Shown here one piece after another: positions 1 to 9,991 of a stretch of DNA of 64,000 nucleotides. Origin of the DNA: Candidatus Flemingiibacterium sp. (GTDB lineage: Bacteria > Bacillota > Clostridia > Oscillospirales > CAG-272); the NCBI GenBank assembly GCA_045636145.1, contig JAZTWV010000047.1, positions 11,101 through 75,100 on the forward strand, given 5' to 3'. The position numbers and the translations under genes were made by a program. A model generated the notes under the pieces. That model searched no databases. It was not told the DNA's origin and saw nothing but the letters and a program-made list of their open reading frames with translations. Every line of letters begins with the position of its first letter. Position 1 is the stretch's first letter.

Positions 1-360
1 AAGCCTGTTAAGCCGCGATATATCGTCGGCAATCAGCTTGCCGCCTTCAACTGCCAAAAATATGGCACCGTCCCCGTTTTTTTCGCACTCTGCAAGCTGT
101 TTTTCGCAGGTGCAGAGCTTCACATTTTTATGCGCTTCAAGCTCCGTTTCAAGTCTGTTTCGCGCATCAAAAAAATTTGAATATGCCTCCTCCTCACCGA
201 TGCGGTGGTCGCTCCACATTGCAAGTATCTGGCAGAATTTCTTGTATTTCGCAAGACGCGCAAGTGAGAGACAGAGGTCGTTTTCAAAGATGCTTTTGTT
301 TTGTTTTCGGCATTCGTAAAGTGTATCGCAGTGAAGATCGAAAATTGGCAGATTATTCAA
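1..360 (-). CDS. Membrane dipeptidase (peptidase M19 family), N-terminal part; gene continues past the left edge
   Basis: Own minus-strand translation from TTG at 358-360 (SD GAAAGGAAG about 7 nt upstream): MNNLPIFDLHCDTLYECRKQNKSIFENDLCLSLARLAKYK...AVEGG. The DLHCDT start is typical of M19 dipeptidases. Absent from the ORF track because there is no stop in the window. Confidence 0.6.
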   Translation of the reverse strand, partial: MNNLPIFDLHCDTLYECRKQNKSIFENDLCLSLARLAKYKKFCQILAMWSDHRIGEEEAYSNFFDARNRLETELEAHKNVKLCTCEKQLAECEKNGDGAIFLAVEGGKLIADDISRLNRL

Positions 361-378
361 AGCCGTGCTTCCTTTCGC

Positions 379-783
379 CTAATAATGTACCGCGTTTCGC
401 AGATGCTTGATATCAAGTGCGGGGGTATCTTCCGGCGTGACGGGATTCCCCTCGCGTATGGGAGGAAAATAAACCTCAATTACATCAATGCGCGGCTGTT
501 TGTTTGGCTTGTAACGCCTAAGATATCCTTCGGCGGCACGGAGCAGTTTTTTCTTCTTTTCATAATTAACAGCCAGGCAAGGACGCCCAAATCGCTTGTT
601 TGATTCTGTCTGCGCGCGGGTTTTCACTTCTACGAATACAATATATTTTTCATCCTCGGCGATTATGTCGAACTCGTCGCGGAAAATGCGGAAATTGCGA
701 GCTTTGATGCTGTATCCGGCATCCTCAAGAAAACGAGCTGCCAATTCTTCGCCGCGAGCGCCGATTGTAGCTTTATAGGTCAT
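379..783 (-). CDS. yraN: YraN family (UPF0102) endonuclease-like protein
   Basis: 134-aa ORF. GEELAARFLEDAGYSI...FDIIAEDEKYIVFVEVKTR matches the YraN/UPF0102 pattern. Overlaps rnhB by 4 nt. Confidence 0.85.
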   Translation of the reverse strand: MTYKATIGARGEELAARFLEDAGYSIKARNFRIFRDEFDIIAEDEKYIVFVEVKTRAQTESNKRFGRPCLAVNYEKKKKLLRAAEGYLRRYKPNKQPRIDVIEVYFPPIREGNPVTPEDTPALDIKHLRNAVHY

Positions 784-1394
784 TTTTCATCAAGGTTTTT
801 AAGGAAACACCGCCTGTAAATCGGGGGAATTTCTCCGTTTTCGGCGATAAACTCCTTAAGTGCGGCATAGTGAGCCTTGGTGGGGTATCCCTTGTGAGCG
901 GCAAGACCAAGCGTGGGATATATCTTATCAAGCTCATAAAGCTGACGGTCACGGGTCACTTTGGCAAGTATGGATGCCGCGGCAATTGACGGGGAGAGGG
1001 CATCTCCGCCAACGAGAGGAATTGCATGTATGGGAAATTCCCTCGCCACGTTTCCGTCCACAAGCACAAGGTCGGGCGTAGGGCTGAGCTTTGCCACAGC
1101 ACGCCGCATAGCAAGCTGTGATGCATTCAGAATGTTGTATTCATCAATCTCCGCCGGAGTAGCCTGTGCAACTGCCCATGAGATAGCATTTTCCACTATA
1201 AGCTCATACAGGGCATCGCGGCGCTTCTCGGTAAGCTTTTTTGAGTCGTTGAGACGCTCAAGCACAATTCCGGCAGGAAGTATGCAGGCACCTGCCACAA
1301 CATTTCCGCAAAGCGGACCTCTGCCGGCTTCATCTGTGCCGCATATGATGTGAAAGCCCTTTTCGGTATAGCTGTTTTCAATATTCCAATCCAT
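780..1394 (-). CDS. rnhB: Ribonuclease HII
   Basis: 204 aa. GTDEAGRGPLCGNVVAGACIL, DSKKL and LVDGN motifs of RNase HII. Confidence 0.9.
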   Translation of the reverse strand: MDWNIENSYTEKGFHIICGTDEAGRGPLCGNVVAGACILPAGIVLERLNDSKKLTEKRRDALYELIVENAISWAVAQATPAEIDEYNILNASQLAMRRAVAKLSPTPDLVLVDGNVAREFPIHAIPLVGGDALSPSIAAASILAKVTRDRQLYELDKIYPTLGLAAHKGYPTKAHYAALKEFIAENGEIPPIYRRCFLKNLDEK

Positions 1395-1411
1395 TATACG
1401 TCCGCTCCCTG

Positions 1412-2284
1412 TTAAAGTGTGGGCGGAAGCTCAAGGGTTATGCGACCTATCTTTGCTCCGCGGAATTCGTCAAGCAGCATATTGGCGGTGCGCTCGTAGT
1501 TTATCTCACCGCCTGATATAAGGAAGCCGCGCTTTTTGCCTATAACCTCAAACAGCTCATAGTCCTGAAGCTCCTCATACTGTGACATCTCACCGAGCTT
1601 ATAACGCTCTGAGAGCTTGTCCGGAGCATTTCTTCTGAGCCTGCCCACAAGCAGTATTGCTATGTGTTCAATGTCAAGTATGTCGTCTTTGATAGCACCC
1701 GTCATAGCGAGGTTTTCACCAACGGTGCGGTCTTCGAATTTCGGCCACAGCACGCCCGGCATATCAAGAAGGTCAATACCGATAGTGGTGGGAATCCACT
1801 GCTTTGTGCGAGTTACGCCGGGGCGATCCTCCACCTTGGCTTTGCCCGAACCTGCAATTTTATTTATAAGCGAGGATTTTCCGACGTTGGGTATACCGAC
1901 CATCATGGCTTTAAGCCGTCTGCCGGTCATACCCTTCGACTCGTAGCGTTCAAGCTTTTCCTCAAGCACCTTTTTTATGGCAGGCGCGATGGCGTTCATA
2001 TTTTCGCCTGCACGGCAGTCATAGAATATGGCTTCACGTCCGATACTGCGGTAATATTCCTGCCATTTTTTGCTGATATCCGGATCGGCAAGGCTTGCCT
2101 TGCTCAGCACTGTAAGATGTGGTTTATCCTTTGTCAGCCTTTCAAGGTCCGGGTTTTTTGAGCTGTGGGGTATGCGCGCGTCAAGTATTTCGATTACGAT
2201 ATCCACAAGCGGCAGACATTCAGTAATAAGCCGCTTGGTCTTTGCCATATGACCCGGAAACCACTGTATTATTTCTGAGGGCAT
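1412..2284 (-). CDS. rbgA: Ribosome biogenesis GTPase A (YlqF/RbgA)
   Basis: 290 aa. Starts IQWFPGHMAKT, with circularly permuted GTPase motifs (GIPNVGKSSLIN, DMPG). Confidence 0.9.
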   Translation of the reverse strand: MPSEIIQWFPGHMAKTKRLITECLPLVDIVIEILDARIPHSSKNPDLERLTKDKPHLTVLSKASLADPDISKKWQEYYRSIGREAIFYDCRAGENMNAIAPAIKKVLEEKLERYESKGMTGRRLKAMMVGIPNVGKSSLINKIAGSGKAKVEDRPGVTRTKQWIPTTIGIDLLDMPGVLWPKFEDRTVGENLAMTGAIKDDILDIEHIAILLVGRLRRNAPDKLSERYKLGEMSQYEELQDYELFEVIGKKRGFLISGGEINYERTANMLLDEFRGAKIGRITLELPPTL

Positions 2285-2305
2285 AGCTTTGCCTCCTTTC
2301 GTGTA

Positions 2306-2902
2306 TCAGTTGACTTTGCCGAATCTTGATAGTGGGGTAATTCTGAACAGCACACGGCCGAATATAAAGCGTGTGTCCACGCATCCTATCTGACTGCCGC
2401 GGCTGTCATTGGAGTAGTTGCGGTTGTCTCCAAGTACAAATATCTGTCCGTCCGGAACGGTTATGGGGAATTTCACATCGTAGGAACGCATATCGTAGCC
2501 GTCGATATAGTTTACATATGGCTCGTCAAGAGCTTCGCCGTCAACATATACGGTCCAAGTTTCAAAGTCGATGTCAACCTCCTGACCCTCGGTGGCAATG
2601 ACGCGCTTAACTATTCCGCCGTCAATTCTGCTGTCAGGGGATTGGAAAACCACAATATCACCCTGAGCCGGGGTGTAGAACAGATTGCTGACACACAGCA
2701 CCTCGCGGTCATGAAGGGTATTATTCATGGAGGGACCGTCAACAAAAGCGATTCTTACCACAAATGTGAAAATTAAAAGCACCGCCGAGATCGTAATGAC
2801 GAAAATCTCTATCCAATCGTATATTTCCCGTGCCGCTTTGAAGCCGGCAGTGGCTTTTTTAGAATTGGCGGAGGTATTGTTTTCATTAGGAGTATTATTC
2901 AC
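2306..2902 (-). CDS. lepB: Signal peptidase I
   Basis: 198 aa. N-terminal TM anchor, GPSMNNTL serine box, GDNRNYSNDSR box. Confidence 0.9.
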   Translation of the reverse strand: MNNTPNENNTSANSKKATAGFKAAREIYDWIEIFVITISAVLLIFTFVVRIAFVDGPSMNNTLHDREVLCVSNLFYTPAQGDIVVFQSPDSRIDGGIVKRVIATEGQEVDIDFETWTVYVDGEALDEPYVNYIDGYDMRSYDVKFPITVPDGQIFVLGDNRNYSNDSRGSQIGCVDTRFIFGRVLFRITPLSRFGKVN

Positions 2903-2928
2903 GGTGATATCTCCTTTCGGCAGGATAG

Positions 2929-4140
2929 TTATTTTTCGATCATGTAAGAGAGCAGGTCATAACCGTGCTCAAGATATAATCCCTTTGCCTCACAGCTTTC
3001 CTCGGTGAAGCAGTCAACGCCGTCCTGTTCCTTTTTAGAAGAATATATGATGAACGGAACGGGATCCATGGAGTGAGTGCGCATACACAGAGGTGTAGGA
3101 TGATCCGGCAGAATCATAATCTTGAAATCCTCACCTGTTGATACAAGATAATCGTAAACGGGACGGAGGATAAGCTCGTCGATCTTTTCAACTGAGAGTA
3201 TTTTGTTTTCAAGCTCGGCGCGATGACCGCATTCGTCGGGTGCCTCAACGTGTATGTATACAAAATCCTTTTCGTTTTCGAATGCCTCAATAGCGGCATC
3301 CGCCTTTCCGGAAAAGTTGGTATGAACATTTCCAGTAGCGCCTTCAACGTCAATAGACTGAAGTCCTGCGCAAAGTCCGATACCCTTTATAAGGTCAACG
3401 GCGGAAATTACAGCACCGCGAAGTCCCCATTTCTCATAGAAGTTGGGGAGCGCAGGCTTTTTGCCGGGACTCCAGAGCCAGATTGAGTTGGCAGGGCGCA
3501 GACCTCTAGCGCGGCGTGCTTCGTTTATGGGATGATGGTTGAGAATATCGTAGCTCTCACGCATAAGCTCATAGAACGGCTTGCCTGCATCACCCGTCGG
3601 GAGATGATCTTTTATGTTCTGACCGAGGATGTCATGAGGACGCATGAAATTGTATTCGGATGGAGTATTATTCCATATCATGCAGTGGCGGTAGCTTACG
3701 CCTGTGTAGAAATGACGGAAATCAGTACCGAAATGCTCCTCCATTGCCTTAATAAGCTCACTTGCTTCAGCAGTTGTGATCTCATCCGCAGAATGGTCTA
3801 ACATTATCTTGTCATCATAGTTTTCTTCTTCCTCGCTGAGCGTAACAACATTGCAGCGGTAAGCGGTATCCTCGGGGCGCATGGTGAGTCCCATTGAAAC
3901 AGCTTCAAGGGGAGAGCGTCCCTTCGAGTATATTTTGGGGTCGTAGGAAAGAACTGCTATATTTGCTGTATCTGATTCGGGAACCATTCCTTCGGGAACG
4001 TTTGAAACAGTGCCGCAGAGTGATTTTTTTGCAAGCTCATCCATCATAGGCTTGTTGGCGGCTGCCATGGGAGTTTTGTTTCCCAGCTCTTCGATTTTAT
4101 AGTCTGCCATACCGTCGCAGAGTAAAACAAGGTATTTCAT
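2929..4140 (-). CDS. apgM: Cofactor-independent phosphoglycerate mutase, archaeal-type (ApgM family)
   Basis: 403 aa. MKYLVLLCDGMADY...NKTPMAAANKPMMDEL and ...YIHVEAPDECGH... match the ApgM / alkaline-phosphatase-superfamily mutase pattern. Confidence 0.8.
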   Translation of the reverse strand: MKYLVLLCDGMADYKIEELGNKTPMAAANKPMMDELAKKSLCGTVSNVPEGMVPESDTANIAVLSYDPKIYSKGRSPLEAVSMGLTMRPEDTAYRCNVVTLSEEEENYDDKIMLDHSADEITTAEASELIKAMEEHFGTDFRHFYTGVSYRHCMIWNNTPSEYNFMRPHDILGQNIKDHLPTGDAGKPFYELMRESYDILNHHPINEARRARGLRPANSIWLWSPGKKPALPNFYEKWGLRGAVISAVDLIKGIGLCAGLQSIDVEGATGNVHTNFSGKADAAIEAFENEKDFVYIHVEAPDECGHRAELENKILSVEKIDELILRPVYDYLVSTGEDFKIMILPDHPTPLCMRTHSMDPVPFIIYSSKKEQDGVDCFTEESCEAKGLYLEHGYDLLSYMIEK

Positions 4141-4295
4141 AAGAGTTATATCCTTTATCAGTCATTTTGTTTCGAGTATATATGCAAACATAAATACTCA
4201 GAATATATTATACCACAAATAAACGGCGCATACAAGTGCGAATAGGTCAAATTTTCATGAAAAAAACAGGCGCGAAGTGTTTATTTTCACTTCAA

Positions 4296-4760
4296 TCACC
4301 TGTTTTTCATCTCTCTTAGCCGTTTAAAGAAGGATTTAAGCTGCATTACGGCATCTTTTTCCAAAACACCGAATACAATCTCCGGTTTATGGTTCAGGGG
4401 ATAAAAATTAAGATTTATAAGACTGCCAAATGCGCCTGCTTTGGCATCCTTTGCGCCAATCACTACACGTTTTATCCGCGAATTTACAATAGCACCGGCA
4501 CACATGGGACAAGGCTCAAGAGTTACATACAGTTCGCATTTGTGAAGTCTCCAGCCGCCAAGCTTCCTGCATGCTTCATTGATGGCAATAAGCTCTGCGT
4601 GCGCTGTGGCGTTTTTGTCGATTTCCCTGCGATTGTATGCTTCGGATACTATCTCATCGCCCATTACCACAACTGCTCCTACCGGAACTTCTCCGATAGC
4701 GGCGGCTTCATCGGCAAGTGCAAGTGCACGGCGCATGAATTTTTCGTCACGCTCATTCAT
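4296..4760 (-). CDS. tadA: tRNA adenosine(34) deaminase
   Basis: HAELIAINEA...LEPCPMCAGA zinc-deaminase motifs. Start moved to ATG 4758-4760, preceded by GGAGG. It forms an ATGAATGA overlap with the stop of the upstream gene, and the longer ORF-track start lies inside that gene. Confidence 0.9.
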   Translation of the reverse strand: MNERDEKFMRRALALADEAAAIGEVPVGAVVVMGDEIVSEAYNRREIDKNATAHAELIAINEACRKLGGWRLHKCELYVTLEPCPMCAGAIVNSRIKRVVIGAKDAKAGAFGSLINLNFYPLNHKPEIVFGVLEKDAVMQLKSFFKRLREMKNR

Positions 4761-5919
4761 CGGTGTAAGCCTCCGTTTCGGCGGTATCCTCGGTAATTTT
4801 CGGCGCAACCAGCCATGCGTTGGGAAGCCGTCTTCCGTATGTAGGATTAAGAGAGCTGTTCTTGGTTATAACCTCACCCTTGTAGGCAAGCACGGAGCTT
4901 GATCCGCCGTCACAGCAGGCGGCATTAACGATGCCGTATTTCTGAAGTATTTCGACAAGATCACCCATGGTGCATCCGATGCTCCATGTGGGCTGTCTTC
5001 CGTCGATTATAAGAAACGCGATAACTCCGTCCTCTCGCTGTCCAATGGCGGTGCGCGGCTGTATGCCGTATCCGCCGGAGCCTTCTATCTGCGCTTCTCC
5101 GTCGGCTATCAGGACAGGTCCGAACTGTATGCCTGCGCGAATATCGTAATACTGCCAATCTTTAACGTTGCCCACAACAAGCTTGTCGTTTGAGGTTATA
5201 AGCACCGAGCCGTAGTAGCTGACTGCCGTTCCCCAATATTCACCCTCTGAATAAGAAAGACCGATAATATCTCCGCCGTGACCGGAATCGCCGGGATCAT
5301 TGAAGCCGCTGGCGTTTATTCCGGCTATAGCACCGTGATGTGCCATCATGGCTTTTATGCGAAGTCCCTCCTTATGCTTGTATGGAGTAGAGCCGAGATA
5401 TACACGGGACGGATCGTCTATAAGCATTATTTTGCCGCGGTAGGATGTGCCGACTATCTCGGATATTACAATCCCTTCTTCAATATCGTTTACAAGTACG
5501 GTGTAACCTGCGTAATCGGTGTCACCGACACTAAGCTCGTTTTGGCACAGAATATCCGATGGAACTTCGGGTAAAATCGTAGCTTCCGCATCGGATGTAT
5601 CGGTGTCCTCAGCATCCGACTTCGAGAGATGCTCACCTCCGCCTATAACGTCGGATGTATCGGTTTTATTTGCCGTAACCTCATCTATGATATACGAGGG
5701 GATAAAGGCAGTGGCGAGCCACTGATGATCGCCTGTGGTCATAGCTGTTTCTATGTATATATCACGCCAATATTTGATAAAGGGGATATTTGAGAAAACA
5801 AACAGCAAATACATTGTGACTGCCAGAATTATGGCGGCGCAGGGGATTATAACCCGTTTTTTCTTAAGCATATCAGATAGTCTTAAATTCTTTTTAGGAG
5901 TTCTTATGTGATTCTGCAT
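4753..5919 (-). CDS. Phosphodiester glycosidase family protein (NAGPA-like, DUF2233), membrane anchored
   Basis: 388 aa. N-terminal TM helix and an acidic linker. C-terminal GINASGFND...QFGPVLIADGE...PRTAIGQREDG...IIDGRQ...CCDGGSSS is typical of the family. Confidence 0.7.
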   Translation of the reverse strand: MQNHIRTPKKNLRLSDMLKKKRVIIPCAAIILAVTMYLLFVFSNIPFIKYWRDIYIETAMTTGDHQWLATAFIPSYIIDEVTANKTDTSDVIGGGEHLSKSDAEDTDTSDAEATILPEVPSDILCQNELSVGDTDYAGYTVLVNDIEEGIVISEIVGTSYRGKIMLIDDPSRVYLGSTPYKHKEGLRIKAMMAHHGAIAGINASGFNDPGDSGHGGDIIGLSYSEGEYWGTAVSYYGSVLITSNDKLVVGNVKDWQYYDIRAGIQFGPVLIADGEAQIEGSGGYGIQPRTAIGQREDGVIAFLIIDGRQPTWSIGCTMGDLVEILQKYGIVNAACCDGGSSSVLAYKGEVITKNSSLNPTYGRRLPNAWLVAPKITEDTAETEAYTDE

Positions 5920-6185
5920 TTATTATCTCCACTCAGAAATTTATATTTTCACGGTGACGTGGTTAAATAAAAGCCGGCATTCTTAGCACGACTACTTAAT
6001 TATAAATAATAATGAAAGATATGGTGTTAATAATGTGTAAATTTTGTCTTTGCTTCGCACAAATTCGTTTTAATCTCACTACAGGTACACGGCACAAATA
6101 TTGTTACTCATACAATTCCCCACGGTGCGCAAATTAGTTTCACGGCGATTTCGAATATGCCGTAACAATGTAAAACTAAAGAGGG

Positions 6186-7223
6186 ATGTCAATGAGATCA
6201 AACAGATATAGAATAGTAATGCGTGCCGTATTGCTGATCTTATGTACCGCCATACTCTCTTTCGGAATTTTTGCGGCTGAATCGGGAGCGTCGGACGTAA
6301 AAATGCTTATACCGGGCGGAGTTCCTTTTGGTGTAAAGCTTTATTCCGAAGGTGTACTTGTTGTAGGTGTTGACAGTGTGATGTGCGGCGGAAAAAGTAT
6401 CAGTCCGGCAGGAAATGCCGGAATCAGAGAAAGGGATATGATAATTTCCGTAAACGGTCAGAGTGTTATTGAAGCGGCTCAGGTGTCCGAGCTTGTAAAT
6501 GCCTCCGGCGGTGAGGCTGTTGAGGTCGCCGTAAAGCGCGGAGACGCGGAGCTTGTATTTTCTGTGACTCCCGTTATTTCGGAGGAGGACGGAAAATACA
6601 GGACAGGACTTTGGATAAGAGACAGCACAGCAGGAATCGGTACTGTAACATATATTGATCCGAAATACGGAAGCTTTGCAGGACTTGGTCACGGAATATG
6701 TGACGTTGATACGGGTGAGCTTGTGCCGCTTTCACGAGGGAGCGTTGTTAATGTGGAAATAAGCGGTGTCGTAAAGGGGCGCTCGGGCACGCCGGGAGAG
6801 CTTAAAGGATATTTCAGCTCGGGCAAGATAGGTACACTATTCGGAAACAGGGAATGCGGCGTGTACGGCATATTTGCGCAGTATCCTGAGGGGGTAGACA
6901 GCAAAACTGTACCGGTATCCTTGCCGGGGGAGATATGTGACGGTGAGGCAGAGATGCTGTGTACTGTGGACAGTGGAGGTGTGAGTCCGTATAAGGTGGA
7001 GATATCTCATATAGATCACTCCGGACGAAGTGTGAAAAATTTTGTTGTCAATGTTACCGATCCGGCACTTCTTGAAAAAACAGGCGGTATTGTGCAAGGC
7101 ATGAGCGGCTCTCCAATAATCCAAAACGGCAAGCTTGTTGGAGCGGTGACTCACGTCTTTATTAACGATCCTACAAAGGGGTACGGGATATTTATTGAAA
7201 ATATGCTCTCTGAGGCAAGCTGA
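6186..7223 (+). CDS. spoIVB: SpoIVB peptidase (stage IV sporulation signalling protease, S55)
   Basis: 345 aa. Signal/TM segment, PDZ-like region, GIGTVTYIDP...AGLGHGI (His) and GIVQGMSGSPI (Ser) catalytic motifs. Confidence 0.85.
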   Translation: MSMRSNRYRIVMRAVLLILCTAILSFGIFAAESGASDVKMLIPGGVPFGVKLYSEGVLVVGVDSVMCGGKSISPAGNAGIRERDMIISVNGQSVIEAAQVSELVNASGGEAVEVAVKRGDAELVFSVTPVISEEDGKYRTGLWIRDSTAGIGTVTYIDPKYGSFAGLGHGICDVDTGELVPLSRGSVVNVEISGVVKGRSGTPGELKGYFSSGKIGTLFGNRECGVYGIFAQYPEGVDSKTVPVSLPGEICDGEAEMLCTVDSGGVSPYKVEISHIDHSGRSVKNFVVNVTDPALLEKTGGIVQGMSGSPIIQNGKLVGAVTHVFINDPTKGYGIFIENMLSEAS

Positions 7224-7299
7224 ATATAAAGGATGGAGCGGTCCTGTAAAGTCCGCTTCATCCTAAATTTATGCTTTTGATTTTCAATAAAATTCAAAA

Positions 7300-7327
7300 T
7301 TCGACAAATTTCGAAGCTTTTTCGACC
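7300..7327 (+). promoter_or_regulatory. Three phased Spo0A-box-like heptamers TTCGACA-aat-TTCGAAG-cttt-TTCGACC
   Basis: TTCGACA is the exact reverse complement of the 0A box TGTCGAA. The heptamers start at 7300, 7310 and 7321 (10-11 bp phasing). 7300-7315 is the exact reverse complement of 8960-8975. Confidence 0.6.
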
Positions 7328-7370
7328 ACTGCTAATAAATCTGCCTGTATGGGTTTATGTGTAATGCCAA

Positions 7371-7399
7371 TTGAAATATTCTGCGGTTTATGATACAAT
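7371..7399 (+). promoter_or_regulatory. Sigma-A-type promoter of Spo0A_C paralog 1 (TTGAAA-17-TACAAT)
   Basis: TTGAAA at 7371-7376, 17-nt spacer, TACAAT at 7394-7399, 62 nt before the ATG. Same geometry as 8876-8904 on the other strand. Confidence 0.6.
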
Positions 7400-7461
7400 A
7401 AATATATGAGCAAAGCTTATAGTAATAAAACAGCTATGTTTAAGACGGAAAGGCATACCGT

Positions 7462-7866
7462 ATGAATAACTTTGATGAAAAAAACGACGTAACTAATCTT
7501 TTTACCGCGGCTGAAATCTCAAGAAAACTGTTTTCTTTGTTTCCGCTTCTCGGAATATCGGCAAATCTCAGGGGATTTAAATATCTTTGTGACGCTGTTT
7601 GCGAAGTGTATTATGATCCAGTTGTAGGAGAGCGTGTGGTGAAAGGCTTGTACCGCTTTATAGCGCAAAAGAATAACACCACGCCTGACTGCGTGGAGCA
7701 TTCTATCAGAACGGCACTTGGAAGATTGGAGCGCCCCGGAAACAAAGCGAAATATTTTGAATTTGTCGGCAAAGAGGTTGGATATACGGCAAAGAAATTT
7801 ATAAATGCGGTTGCAGGCAAGCTTAGAGCGGAAAGCATGACGGAAAATACAAAAGTACAAATATAA
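7462..7866 (+). CDS. Stand-alone Spo0A C-terminal DNA-binding domain protein, paralog 1 (no receiver domain)
   Basis: 134 aa. LGISANLRGFKYLCDAVCEVYYD...LYRFIAQKNNTTPDCVEHSIRTAL...KFINAVAGKLR aligns with B. subtilis Spo0A [23 protein letters not shown]...[24 protein letters not shown]...EFIAMVADKLR (recalled from memory). SD GAAAGG precedes the ATG. Confidence 0.8.
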   Translation: MNNFDEKNDVTNLFTAAEISRKLFSLFPLLGISANLRGFKYLCDAVCEVYYDPVVGERVVKGLYRFIAQKNNTTPDCVEHSIRTALGRLERPGNKAKYFEFVGKEVGYTAKKFINAVAGKLRAESMTENTKVQI

Positions 7867-7876
7867 AAAATAAGTT

Positions 7877-7916
7877 CCCCTGTAAAAGCTTTGAAAATCC
7901 AAGGCTTTTACGGGGG
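7877..7916. terminator. 13-bp hairpin between the convergent Spo0A_C genes (probable bidirectional terminator)
   Basis: CCCCTGTAAAAGC (7877-7889) pairs with GCTTTTACGGGGG (7904-7916) with one G.U pair. A-run upstream, T-rich downstream. Confidence 0.6.
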
Positions 7917-7931
7917 ATTATGTATTTAAGG

Positions 7932-7960
7932 TTGACTTTTGAATGTCTGTGTGTTACAAT
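7932..7960 (+). promoter_or_regulatory. Orphan near-consensus sigma-A promoter (TTGACT-17-TACAAT) pointing antisense into paralogs 2/3
   Basis: TTGACT at 7932-7937, 17-nt spacer, TACAAT at 7955-7960. No credible plus-strand CDS lies downstream. Confidence 0.45.
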
Positions 7961-8038
7961 GTACCTATAGCTTTTGAATTTGCTAACCTACACCGGTCTG
8001 CACTACAGTATTATCAAGATTGAGCTTAAAAAACAGAA

Positions 8039-8410
8039 CTATTGCCTGCTGTCAAATTCTGCTGATATTTCATGCAGACGTCTTGCAATAGCGGAAATAA
8101 ACTGTGCGCAGGTGGGATGGCGGTGTGTAATGTCACAGTCAAAATACCTGCCAAACTCAAAAATACGACCGATGCGGCAGGCGCGCTCAACTGCATGACG
8201 GCAGTTCCGCTCAACGCCGGCGGCATCGGAAGCATGGCATAATCGTGCTACCTTGGGGTACAACGTTTTTGTTATGTATTCGGTTATGTCGGGCGAATGA
8301 TATGCAAGTATTATTGAGCATCTTAAGTAGTCATAACCCTTACAGCTTACCGGAATCCCAAGGTATATCAGAATATCGGTAATTTGAATGTCAAGAGCTT
8401 CATCACTCAT
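8039..8410 (-). CDS. Stand-alone Spo0A C-terminal DNA-binding domain protein, paralog 2 (Cys/His-rich)
   Basis: 123 aa. LGIPVSCKGYDYLRCSIILAY...LYPKVARLCHASDAAGVERNCRHAVERA...AQFISAIARRL. ATGA start/stop overlap with paralog 3, and SD GGAAGG lies inside the upstream gene. Confidence 0.8.
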   Translation of the reverse strand: MSDEALDIQITDILIYLGIPVSCKGYDYLRCSIILAYHSPDITEYITKTLYPKVARLCHASDAAGVERNCRHAVERACRIGRIFEFGRYFDCDITHRHPTCAQFISAIARRLHEISAEFDSRQ

Positions 8411-8817
8411 AGGTTGGTCCTTCCGGTATTTATCAGATTACGTCTCAGCTTATCCGCAAGAAGTGCTGTGAATTCTCGTACAGATGGAGTGCTTTCAGCA
8501 TTGCTTTTTAAAAAGTGTTCGCCAAGCTTCAATTTATCGCCGTTTTTAAAAAGGAGCTTTATTGCGGTTCGGCAGTTTCGTTCCACGCAGGATACGGTGG
8601 TGCAGTTTTCTTCCGCTATCTGCCGATACAGTCCAACGATAACATTTCTGATAGCGATTTTGTCCATATATACGATCTCTATAGCGCGGCAGAGGTACGA
8701 AAATCCCTTAAGGTGTGTGGACATTCCCATCTCCGTAAGCAGGGTGCGTATTTGCCGGATCAATTCTTCTTCTGTATATTCCGTGAACTCAAGGGGGCGG
8801 TAGGGGTGTGCTTGCAT
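8407..8817 (-). CDS. Stand-alone Spo0A C-terminal DNA-binding domain protein, paralog 3
   Basis: MGMSTHLKGFSYLCRAIEIVYMD...LYRQIAEENCTTVSCVERNCRTAI...EFTALLADKLR. Start set at ATG 8815-8817 (SD AGGAG, giving 136 aa). The 165-aa ORF-track version would run over its own promoter. Confidence 0.8.
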   Translation of the reverse strand: MQAHPYRPLEFTEYTEEELIRQIRTLLTEMGMSTHLKGFSYLCRAIEIVYMDKIAIRNVIVGLYRQIAEENCTTVSCVERNCRTAIKLLFKNGDKLKLGEHFLKSNAESTPSVREFTALLADKLRRNLINTGRTNL

Positions 8818-8875
8818 AGTCTTGCTCCTGTGGTGTATTATTTGCCGATATCTGCATTGAATGTTAACATATATA

Positions 8876-8904
8876 ATTATACCACATAAGTGCGCAGGTT
8901 TCAA
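8876..8904 (-). promoter_or_regulatory. Sigma-A-type promoter of the paralog 3-2 operon (TTGAAA-17-TATAAT)
   Basis: Minus strand: TTGAAA at 8904-8899, 17-nt spacer, TATAAT at 8881-8876. It lies 55 nt downstream of the 0A-box pair, exactly as for paralog 1. Confidence 0.6.
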
Positions 8905-8958
8905 TTAGGATAATTCCCGAACATTCAGACTGTGTTTTTTGCATAATATACTATAAAT

Positions 8959-8975
8959 TTTCGAAATTTGTCGAA
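8959..8975 (-). promoter_or_regulatory. Tandem 0A-box pair TTTCGAA-att-TGTCGAA (plus-strand reading)
   Basis: Contains a perfect TGTCGAA 0A box at 8969-8975 and a second heptamer 3 bp away, the head-to-tail geometry of tandem 0A boxes. The 16-mer 8960-8975 is the reverse complement of 7300-7315. Confidence 0.6.
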
Positions 8976-8986
8976 AAGTGAAAGAT

Positions 8987-9011
8987 TCGGTAAAATAAGT
9001 AAAAAAATATT
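8987..9011. repeat. 25-nt AT-rich motif TCGGTAAAATAAGTAAAAAAATATT, copy 1 of 2
   Basis: Nearly identical to 46934-46958 (TCGGTGAAAATAAGTAAAAAATATT). Both copies lie 11-12 nt from a 0A-like box. Confidence 0.5.
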
Positions 9012-9058
9012 AGTCTGTCACCGCGTTGCGATGACGGACAGCTAATGAAAGGAAGCAT

Positions 9059-9991
9059 ATGAACATATACAGATCTTTTGGAGAACTTATAGGAAAAACG
9101 CCTCTTTTTGAGACAGTGCATTACGGTACAGAACATAATCTTACGGCAAAAATATTCGCAAAGCTTGAATATTTTAATCCGGCAGGCAGTGTTAAGGACA
9201 GAGCGGCTCTTTATATGATAAATGACGCCGAAAAAAGCGGCAGACTTAAGCCGGGTGGGACGATAATAGAGCCTACAAGCGGAAATACGGGCATAGGACT
9301 TGCGGCAGTTGCCGCTTCACGCGGATACAGGGTCATACTTACCATGCCCGATACCATGAGCGTGGAACGCCGGACTCTGCTTGGCGCTTACGGAGCCGAG
9401 CTGATCCTTACAGACGGCAAACTCGGTATGTCGGGTGCCATAGAGAAGGCGAGGGAGCTTGCGGCGCAGATTGACGGAAGCATAATAGCGGGACAGTTTG
9501 AAAATCCGGCAAATGCTATGGCGCATTATGAGACCACAGGTCCTGAGATATGGGAGGATATGGACGGCAAGGTCGACATATTCGTTGCCGGCGTTGGAAC
9601 GGGCGGCACTATCACGGGAATCGGCAGATATCTTAAAGAGAAAAATCCGAATGTAAAAATAGTTGCCGTAGAGCCTGCTTCCTCACCTATGCTTTCCAAG
9701 GGAAAGAGCGGAGCACACGGGCTTCAAGGCATCGGAGCGAATTTTGTGCCGGATATACTCGATGTATCGCTTCTTGACGAAATTATAACCGTAAACGAGA
9801 AAGAGGCATACGGTGCCGCAAGGGCACTTGCAGGGAGCGAGGGAATCCTTGTGGGAATTTCTTCCGGTGCGGCTCTCCATGCCGCAGCCTTGCTTGCAAA
9901 GCGTCCGGAGAATGCAGGACTAAGTATCGTGGTACTGCTTCCGGATACGGGCGACAGATATTTGTCAACACCCCTTTTTGACGGTAAATAA
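9059..9991 (+). CDS. cysK: Cysteine synthase A (O-acetylserine sulfhydrylase)
   Basis: 310 aa. PLP-dependent fold with [19 protein letters not shown] and [10 protein letters not shown] motifs. SD GAAAGGAAG. Confidence 0.9.

Follow-up and report, generated by a model that had tools for sequence, protein, structure and literature searches.

The window analyzed here, a DNA stretch of 64,000 nt whose positions are used as coordinates throughout, contains three short genes, p1, p2 and p3, each of which encodes a protein of the Spo0A_C-only type. Two transcription units are predicted for them, a lone p1 gene and a p3-p2 operon, in which the start codon of p2 overlaps the stop codon of p3 (ATGA) and p2 is without a promoter of its own. 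Upstream of both units lies the same 16-mer, TTCGACAAATTTCGAA, which occurs at positions 7300-7315 of the plus strand and 8975-8960 of the minus strand, exactly as a first-pass annotation of this DNA had reported. This 16-mer, a candidate operator for Spo0A-type domains, and the promoters behind it are the subject of the analysis (Table 1).

A scan for the 16-mer, recommended for the genome in the same annotation, returned these two copies and no others in the 64-kb window, even at ≤2 mismatches, so the element is not a widespread repeat there; dinucleotide shuffles gave a mean of 0.05 matches, and none of 100 reached two. Both copies begin with box A, TTCGACA, which on the opposite strand matches the 7-bp core of the 0A box, 5'-TGTCGAA-3', perfectly. 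A second, imperfect box in the same orientation, box B, follows after 3 bp (TTCGACA-AAT-TTCGAA(G/A)). The tandem head-to-tail pair of 0A boxes postulated for this element was thus seen in both copies, and the third heptamer that had been noted for p1, TTCGACC, was recovered 11 bp after box B of that operator. It has been shown that Spo0A contacts G2, C4 and G5 of the 0A box (PMC3485338). With respect to these bases, box A is complete and box B partial in the window genome, where position 2 of box B is a T. With 45 found and 43 expected, single TGNCGAA heptamers show no enrichment in the window, and the eight further perfect TGTCGAA sites all lie within long open reading frames (ORFs).

Promoters were searched as sigma-70-type sites, with the hexamers scored out of 12. 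P-p1 and P-p3 are the two best matches facing a Spo0A_C gene within positions 7150-9100, and at both units the hexamers of a sigma-A promoter are present with a spacer in the range of 16-18 nt. The annotated arrangement, in which each 16-mer is followed after exactly 55 nt by TTGAAA-17-TA(C/T)AAT, was found at both copies, and in both the -10 box is extended by a TG. The sequence ATATATG that was said to follow the -10 box is also present, but its offset is unequal, with 2 nt in P-p1 and 1 nt in P-p3. Between the 16-mer and the start codon lie 146 nt at p1 (ATG at 7462) and 142 nt at p3 (ATG at 8817); the range of 143-147 nt given earlier differs from this through the counting of ends. Each unit has one strong sigma-A-type promoter, with the boxes upstream of it. 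A dual sigma-A/sigma-H promoter with boxes in between was not seen, in a scan that covered sigma-70-type sites and included no search for sigma-H. The 55-nt spacers of p1 and p3 are identical at only 24 of 55 positions, which indicates that the block of 16 identities out of 16 is not the remnant of a recent duplication.

Table 1. Positions of genes, operators and promoters around the Spo0A_C-only genes of the window.
Feature	Position	Strand	Details
p1	7462..7866	+	134 aa, Spo0A_C only; Pfam PF08769, E=3.9e-17
p2	8039..8410	-	123 aa, Spo0A_C only; Pfam PF08769, E=1.3e-23
p3	8407..8817	-	136 aa, Spo0A_C only; Pfam PF08769, E=5.4e-22
Operator O-p1 (putative)	7300..7316	+	box A, 3-bp spacer AAT, box B
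O-p1 box A TTCGACA	7300-7306	+	perfect 0A box TGTCGAA on the opposite strand
O-p1 box B TTCGAAG	7310-7316	+	imperfect, same orientation, 3 bp from box A
Third phased box TTCGACC	7321..7327	+	11 bp after O-p1 box B
P-p1 core promoter	7371..7399	+	10/12, TG present; 55 nt after the 16-mer
P-p1 hexamers	-35 TTGAAA 7371-7376; -10 TACAAT 7394-7399	+	17-nt spacer ending TGa
Operator O-p3 (putative)	8959..8975	-	box A TTCGACA 8975-8969, AAT, box B TTCGAAA 8965-8959
Weak proximal box TTCGGGA	8915..8921	-	p3 promoters only
P-p3 core promoter	8876..8904	-	11/12, TG present; 55 nt after the 16-mer
P-p3 hexamers	-35 TTGAAA 8904-8899; -10 TATAAT 8881-8876	-	17-nt spacer ending TGg
spoIVB (peptidase S55 + PDZ)	6186..7223	+	immediately upstream of O-p1; Pfam E=3.3e-81
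cysK	9059-9991	+	divergent from p3
Possible cysK promoter TTGTCG-17-TAAAAT	8968..8996	+	9/12; -35 overlaps O-p3 box A

Related loci for comparison (coded L001, L002 and so on, with W for the window) were gathered through homologues of p1, p3 and SpoIVB and one species-representative genome scan. All of them belong to metagenome-assembled genomes (MAGs) of uncultured Clostridia, one of which is named Candidatus Flemingiibacterium sp. From these a set of 18 promoters, nine of p1 and nine of p3, was assembled, representing at least seven lineages of Candidatus Flemingiibacterium and relatives, in which the p1 and p3 orthologues fall to about 45-50% identity with the window proteins. A column-by-column footprint was made on 12 of the 18. 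The p1 and p3 promoters were compared in an ungapped register anchored on the 16-mer; a MAFFT alignment of them was not used, as it contained a spurious 20-nt gap.

The distance between operator and -35 box is 55 nt in all 18 promoters. All 18 also have a 17-nt spacer between the -35 and -10 boxes, with TG before the latter, and the -35 box reads TTGAA(A/T). The leaders between -10 box and start codon vary from 37 to 77 nt. The sequence of the 55-nt spacer is not conserved: distant lineages share 27-45% identity, compared with a random expectation of 28% from composition. A length that is invariant while the sequence drifts indicates that distance and helical face are required. Box A is TTCGACA in 16 of the 18 promoters and TTCGACG in the other two, which changes position 1 only (CGTCGAA), and all 18 retain the contacted G2, C4 and G5 in this box. 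In box B, C4 and G5 are kept in every promoter. The longest invariant blocks of the footprint are TTCGACA-n-ATT-n-CGA, TTGAA and T-TG-TA-AAT, and the remainder consists of scattered single columns.

Box B varies within the clade of the window (TTTCGA, TTCCGA, TTACGA) and is a perfect TTCGACA in L018 and L020 (TTCGACA-TTT-TTCGACA and TTCGACA-ATC-TTCGACA). Based on these perfect copies and on extra phased boxes elsewhere, box B is regarded as a genuine second box. Such extra boxes include the third box downstream of the pair, kept as TTCGA[CT][CT] in close relatives only, and, in L018, L020 and L025, a third phased box that precedes the pair. In P-p3 of the window, the weak proximal TTCGGGA is located 54 nt from the start of box A on its downstream side and roughly 10 nt before the -35 box. 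With the exception of L005/L006, every lineage retains TTCG at this position in its p3 promoters. Judged from these comparisons, what has been conserved is a direct repeat of 10-bp period, and not the partial palindrome of the window genome. A further block, GGnnATTATCCTAA, is common to p3 promoters and directly adjoins the -35 box (8905-8925, minus strand in the window), with the weak TTCGG box just upstream. This block is invariant in W, L001, L002, L005, L006, L008 and L022 and is not found in L018 or L020. The p1 promoters have GGTTTAT and ACAAATC blocks in common instead.

The first-pass annotation had concluded that the promoter-operator module was duplicated along with the genes. Given the architecture that both units share, this is the most parsimonious reading, and a common origin of the p1 and p3 modules by duplication is plausible from their layout. 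However, the 55-nt spacers of p1 and p3 are 27-51% identical compared with a random expectation of about 28%, which leaves descent unproven.

The partial palindrome deserves attention since the direct repeat could be the site of an unrelated regulator, with its likeness to 0A boxes coincidental. The 16-mer of the window genome can also be read as an imperfect palindrome (TTCGA-n6-TCGAA), and the operator of P-p3 resembles a CodY box at 11 of 15 positions by eye, while binding by Spo0A_C is itself a prediction. Both the palindrome and the CodY likeness are gone in other lineages (TTCGACATATTCCGAT, TTCGACAAATTCCGAG), in which the direct repeat becomes stronger (TTCGACA-TTT-TTCGACA), and in the DNA analyzed the motif occurs only at genes for the one domain known to read TGTCGAA. 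An unrelated regulator is thus very unlikely. A palindromic operator for a symmetric dimer was rejected, because the symmetry is lost elsewhere and the direct repeat is kept or improved. A CodY box was rejected as well, the likeness being limited to P-p3 of the window genome and not conserved.

It is also very unlikely that the block belongs to an additional promoter further upstream, for which box A would serve as the -35 hexamer, or that it is a structural or UP-like element. A site of this kind, TCGACA-18-TATATT, scores 10/12 at 8974-8945 on the minus strand, and its TATATT is retained in several p3 promoters. No matching -10 box exists downstream of the p1 operator, however, and TATATT is lost in L005/L006, L018 and L020. 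An upstream promoter would moreover leave box B and the fixed 55 nt unexplained. The use of box A as -35 was therefore discarded, with no -10 at p1 and that of p3 not conserved in distant promoters. If the site at 8945-8974 (minus strand) is real, binding to the operator would block this upstream start and at the same time affect the main promoter, a switching loosely like that between Pv and Ps of Bacillus subtilis spo0A. No Rfam family scored anywhere in the window, and a structured RNA as explanation of the block was dropped for lack of such a match.

The specificity of the motif was assessed in about 280 kb, comprising the window and the fetched loci. Every TTCGNCA-N3-TTCG pair in this DNA sits directly upstream of a Spo0A_C gene. 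A metagenome scan with the full architecture (operator, 56 nt, TTGAA, 15 nt, TGnTAnAAT) returned a single contig from the MAG lineage of L003, which indicates that the design is rare and clade-specific and not a dispersed repeat. Chance or a dispersed repeat was excluded on the basis of the two copies in the window and the restriction of tandem pairs to Spo0A_C genes. The genes next to the promoters vary by lineage and include spoIVB, spoIVA, an AraC-type gene and cysK at varying distance. Despite these changes the operator always accompanies the Spo0A_C promoter.

Tandem boxes also precede Spo0A-like homologues of 246-254 aa with a degenerate receiver in MAGs of Oscillospiraceae and Ruminococcus (L010 7623-8363, L014 7569-8312 and L015 7590-8354; also L011 and L013). 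These proteins have an Asn at the position of the phospho-acceptor Asp (DVLILNLTVP), and the Pfam Response_reg match is absent or at E=0.005. Two to three phased TTCGACA boxes are located about 30 nt upstream of their TTGAC/TTGAT-17/18-TATAAT promoter.

The three proteins were also analyzed for their domain content. p1, p2 and p3 match Pfam PF08769 and nothing else, and NCBIfam TIGR02875 aligns to them at model positions 144-259 only, with 49-76 bits (49 for p1) compared with a cut-off of 200. They are therefore classified as Spo0A_C-only proteins and not as Spo0A. An N-terminal receiver domain with a phospho-accepting Asp was found by Pfam and TIGR02875 in none of the three, and the gap between spoIVB and p1 (238 nt) is too short for one. 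A sequence search of the Protein Data Bank (PDB) with p3 returned 1FC3 and 1LQ1 (E ~6e-13). The AlphaFold2 model of p3 contains six helices, with a predicted local distance difference test (pLDDT) score of 80.8, and its only significant PDB matches in Foldseek are the same two structures, at a root mean square deviation (rmsd) of 1.1-1.5 Å. For the DNA-bound chains of 1LQ1 the rmsd is 1.1-1.4 Å and the target template modeling (TM) score 0.90-0.93.

Differences between the paralogs occur in the recognition helix, for which the motif of B. subtilis Spo0A, VERAIR, serves as reference. In p3 (helix TTVSCVERNCRTAI) the motif is VERNCR; VER..R is invariant across the p3 orthologues, so that E, R and R are found in all lineages. 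p2 likewise has VERNCR; in L018 and L020 its Glu is replaced (VAR or VSR). In p1 (helix TTPDCVEHSIRTAL) the motif is VEHSIR in most lineages, including the window (VEHSIRTAL), which places a His at the equivalent of Spo0A Arg214; the Arg is kept in L008 and L025. E213, R214 and R217 are reportedly the base-contacting residues of Spo0A according to Zhao et al. 2002. p3 and p2 carry equivalents of this set, whereas p1 has His for Arg. In the window genome an intact recognition helix of the Spo0A type would thus be carried by p3 and p2 and not by p1. Due to the conservation of the Glu-Arg..Arg residues in every lineage, p3 is the best candidate for a binder of the operator. In view of the His in p1 and the loss of Glu in p2, the three proteins may differ in DNA specificity. 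The isolated DNA-binding domain of Spo0A binds genuine targets without phosphorylation (PMC3485338), and the receiver-less paralogs are hence expected to be constitutively competent binders.

The three proteins belong to a large uncharacterized set of proteins with PF08769 only. At E<=0.001, 2687 representative clusters match p3; among the best 150 of these 2687, many are 100-200 aa long and some have two to four Spo0A_C domains per chain. Five of the proteins (P0140, P0142, P0143, P0147 and P0150) comprise 394-454 aa with three or four tandem Spo0A_C domains and no receiver. This suggests that the multi-domain chains are arrays of domains acting side by side on phased boxes. A published operator or function for Spo0A_C-only proteins was not found in a literature search.

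On phi29 and Nf DNA, Spo0A protects 20-30 bp over tandem pairs in which a box at or near consensus is joined by an imperfect one 3 bp away (PMC2731898). The direct repeat found here has the form of this footprint unit, which together with the Spo0A fold of p3 points to a head-to-tail operator for Spo0A-type domains. The 16-mer is thus probably the tandem operator of the two sigma-A promoters, and the paralogs likely regulate themselves or each other positively through it. Auto- or cross-regulation by proteins with a Spo0A helix had been predicted in the first-pass annotation and is supported by the conservation of the boxes, their spacing and their restriction to Spo0A_C genes, with binding itself being deduced from these features. 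Two Spo0A-type domains would occupy box A and box B as neighbors on the same helical face. The likeliest occupant would be p3, alone or with the translationally coupled p2, and the bound proteins would need a fixed spatial relation to RNA polymerase or a promoter-proximal partner. If transcription starts 7 nt after the -10 box, as assumed for all promoter positions given here, box A lies at about -106 to -100 and box B at about -96 to -90. From the position of box B, centered near -93, an activator could reach the alpha subunit of the polymerase, as upstream activators can. Spo0A sites upstream of the -35 box go with activation (PMC4168254). The expected outcome would be a positive effect on the paralog genes, and activation is probably somewhat more likely than repression. 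Both the predicted binder and the sign of regulation are what we infer from the sequences.

Several observations weigh against this reading. The core promoters are close to consensus and have an extended -10, and should fire without an activator; repression or fine-tuning therefore fits as well as activation. Centered near -98, the site is rather distant from the polymerase for a direct contact. Box B is without G2 in the window genome. p1 usually has a His at Arg214 and p2 is without the Glu in L018 and L020, so that not every paralog need bind. In addition, a full-length Spo0A encoded elsewhere in the genome may occupy the boxes.

This last possibility, in which a canonical phosphorylated Spo0A binds the boxes and the paralogs are members of its regulon, perhaps as modulators or competitors, is a serious though rather unlikely alternative. 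Every characterized spore-former encodes a full-length Spo0A, some Clostridiales carry two to three spo0A paralogs (bioRxiv 10.1101/2022.02.25.481979), and box A is the exact canonical consensus. The organisms may sporulate, as spoIVB is intact in the window and spoIVA is located beside the p3-p2 pair in relatives. In the window and the fetched loci of the clade no full-length Spo0A was found. The position after spoIVB is the usual place of spo0A in Firmicutes. p1 follows spoIVB in the window and in L005/L006 and lies within 2 kb of it in L025/L026, and nothing Spo0A-like follows spoIVB in L024 (the contig of L018) or L027. This shows that spo0A need not sit there in this clade, and for the same reason a positional descent of p1 from spo0A is weak and was not relied on. 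Against canonical Spo0A as the binder, all tandem operators in the 280 kb belong to Spo0A_C genes, and other genes have none. Moreover, sister species (L002, L003, L004, L007 and L023) retain no more of spoIVB than a 71-aa C-terminal remnant, located directly after a radical-SAM gene (e.g. L002 3547-3762), but the three Spo0A_C genes and the two operators are unchanged. This argues for a role that is not tied to sporulation and suggests that the function of the trio outlives the sporulation genes. Binding by canonical Spo0A and autoregulation are compatible, as both kinds of protein could bind.

A further-reaching version of autoregulation, which we consider unlikely, is that a self-contained, receiver-less circuit without phosphorylation has replaced Spo0A, in which the three Spo0A_C-only proteins, with a p3-p2 heterodimer on the perfect and imperfect box, would switch on their own genes through the rigidly placed operator. 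Input to such a circuit would come from transcription or from partner proteins and not from a kinase. The clade still keeps the sporulation genes spoIVA and spoIVB.

Spo0A is the textbook example of a developmental switch that is gated by phosphorylation and reinforced by autoregulation. That spo0A regulates itself via 0A boxes has been established for B. subtilis, and in Clostridioides difficile Spo0A binds upstream of its own gene. The present locus resembles spo0A of both species in that several TGTCGAA-type boxes lie in the control region of the regulator's own gene. This autoregulation and the function of tandem boxes 3 bp apart as a binding unit are already known. What is different from spo0A, and new, is that the regulated genes encode receiver-less Spo0A_C proteins, that three paralogs in two units stand under one operator design, and that the operator has a rigid upstream position. 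Since the paralogs have no receiver domain, phosphorylation cannot gate the loop. In B. subtilis the boxes 0A1-0A4 are located between the sigma-A promoter Pv and the sigma-H promoter Ps, whereas here they lie 55 nt upstream of a single sigma-A promoter. The phi29 and Nf pairs have in common with the present ones a perfect or near-perfect and an imperfect box in the same orientation, about one helical turn apart from center to center. In contrast to the operator centered near -98, the sites of phi29, Nf and abrB mostly overlap or abut core promoters and repress. The abrB site crystallized in PDB 1LQ1 is presumably a tandem 0A pair, too.

The promoter of B. subtilis spoIIG offers another comparison. 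According to Baldus et al. 1994 it is said to combine a strong upstream site with weak promoter-proximal 0A boxes. Its -35/-10 spacing of 22 bp is defective, and it hence depends on an activator. P-p3, with its strong distal pair near -100 and the weak TTCG near -50, recalls site 1 and site 2 of spoIIG as reported, but differs from it in the 17-nt spacer and the extended -10.

The locus thus keeps the autoregulatory half of the Spo0A switch, 0A boxes before the regulator's own gene, with single-base precision in genes that are without the phosphorylation half. Should the paralogs bind their own operator, the locus would be a natural experiment in which a feedback loop of the Spo0A type runs with no receiver domain. 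It would then also provide the first functional handle, namely a DNA target and a promoter geometry, on the Spo0A_C-only family of gut Clostridia. If canonical Spo0A binds, the paralogs would be conserved members of the Spo0A regulon and possibly competitors at 0A boxes.

The gene cysK is divergent from p3 in every lineage. Its possible promoter is the sole promoter-like site of cysK in the window, and in the gaps between cysK and p3 of L005, L008, L018 and L022 a consensus TTGACA-17-TATAAT is located about 16 nt beyond box A. As these promoters overlap or lie near box A, the operator could also act on cysK. An operator for the divergent cysK only was rejected as a general explanation, because the p1 operator has no divergent gene here and the neighbors differ between lineages.

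Positions 1-6000 of the window harbor genes for RNase HII, a GTPase, a signal peptidase, a phosphoglycerate-mutase-like protein, a deaminase and NAGPA, which are divergent from spoIVB. This block from RNase HII to NAGPA is syntenic across the wider clade (L024, L025 and L027), and the region downstream of spoIVB is variable. A hairpin is located at 7876-7917 and is followed at 7932-7960 (plus strand) by a strong promoter-like site, TTGACT-17-TGtTACAAT (10/12), which points into the 3' end of the convergent p2-p3 operon and is antisense to p2. The site is identical in two close relatives, and the hairpin GTAGCTT...AAGCTAC downstream of it is kept via G-U pairs and compensatory changes. Based on these features, the region may give rise to an antisense or small RNA.

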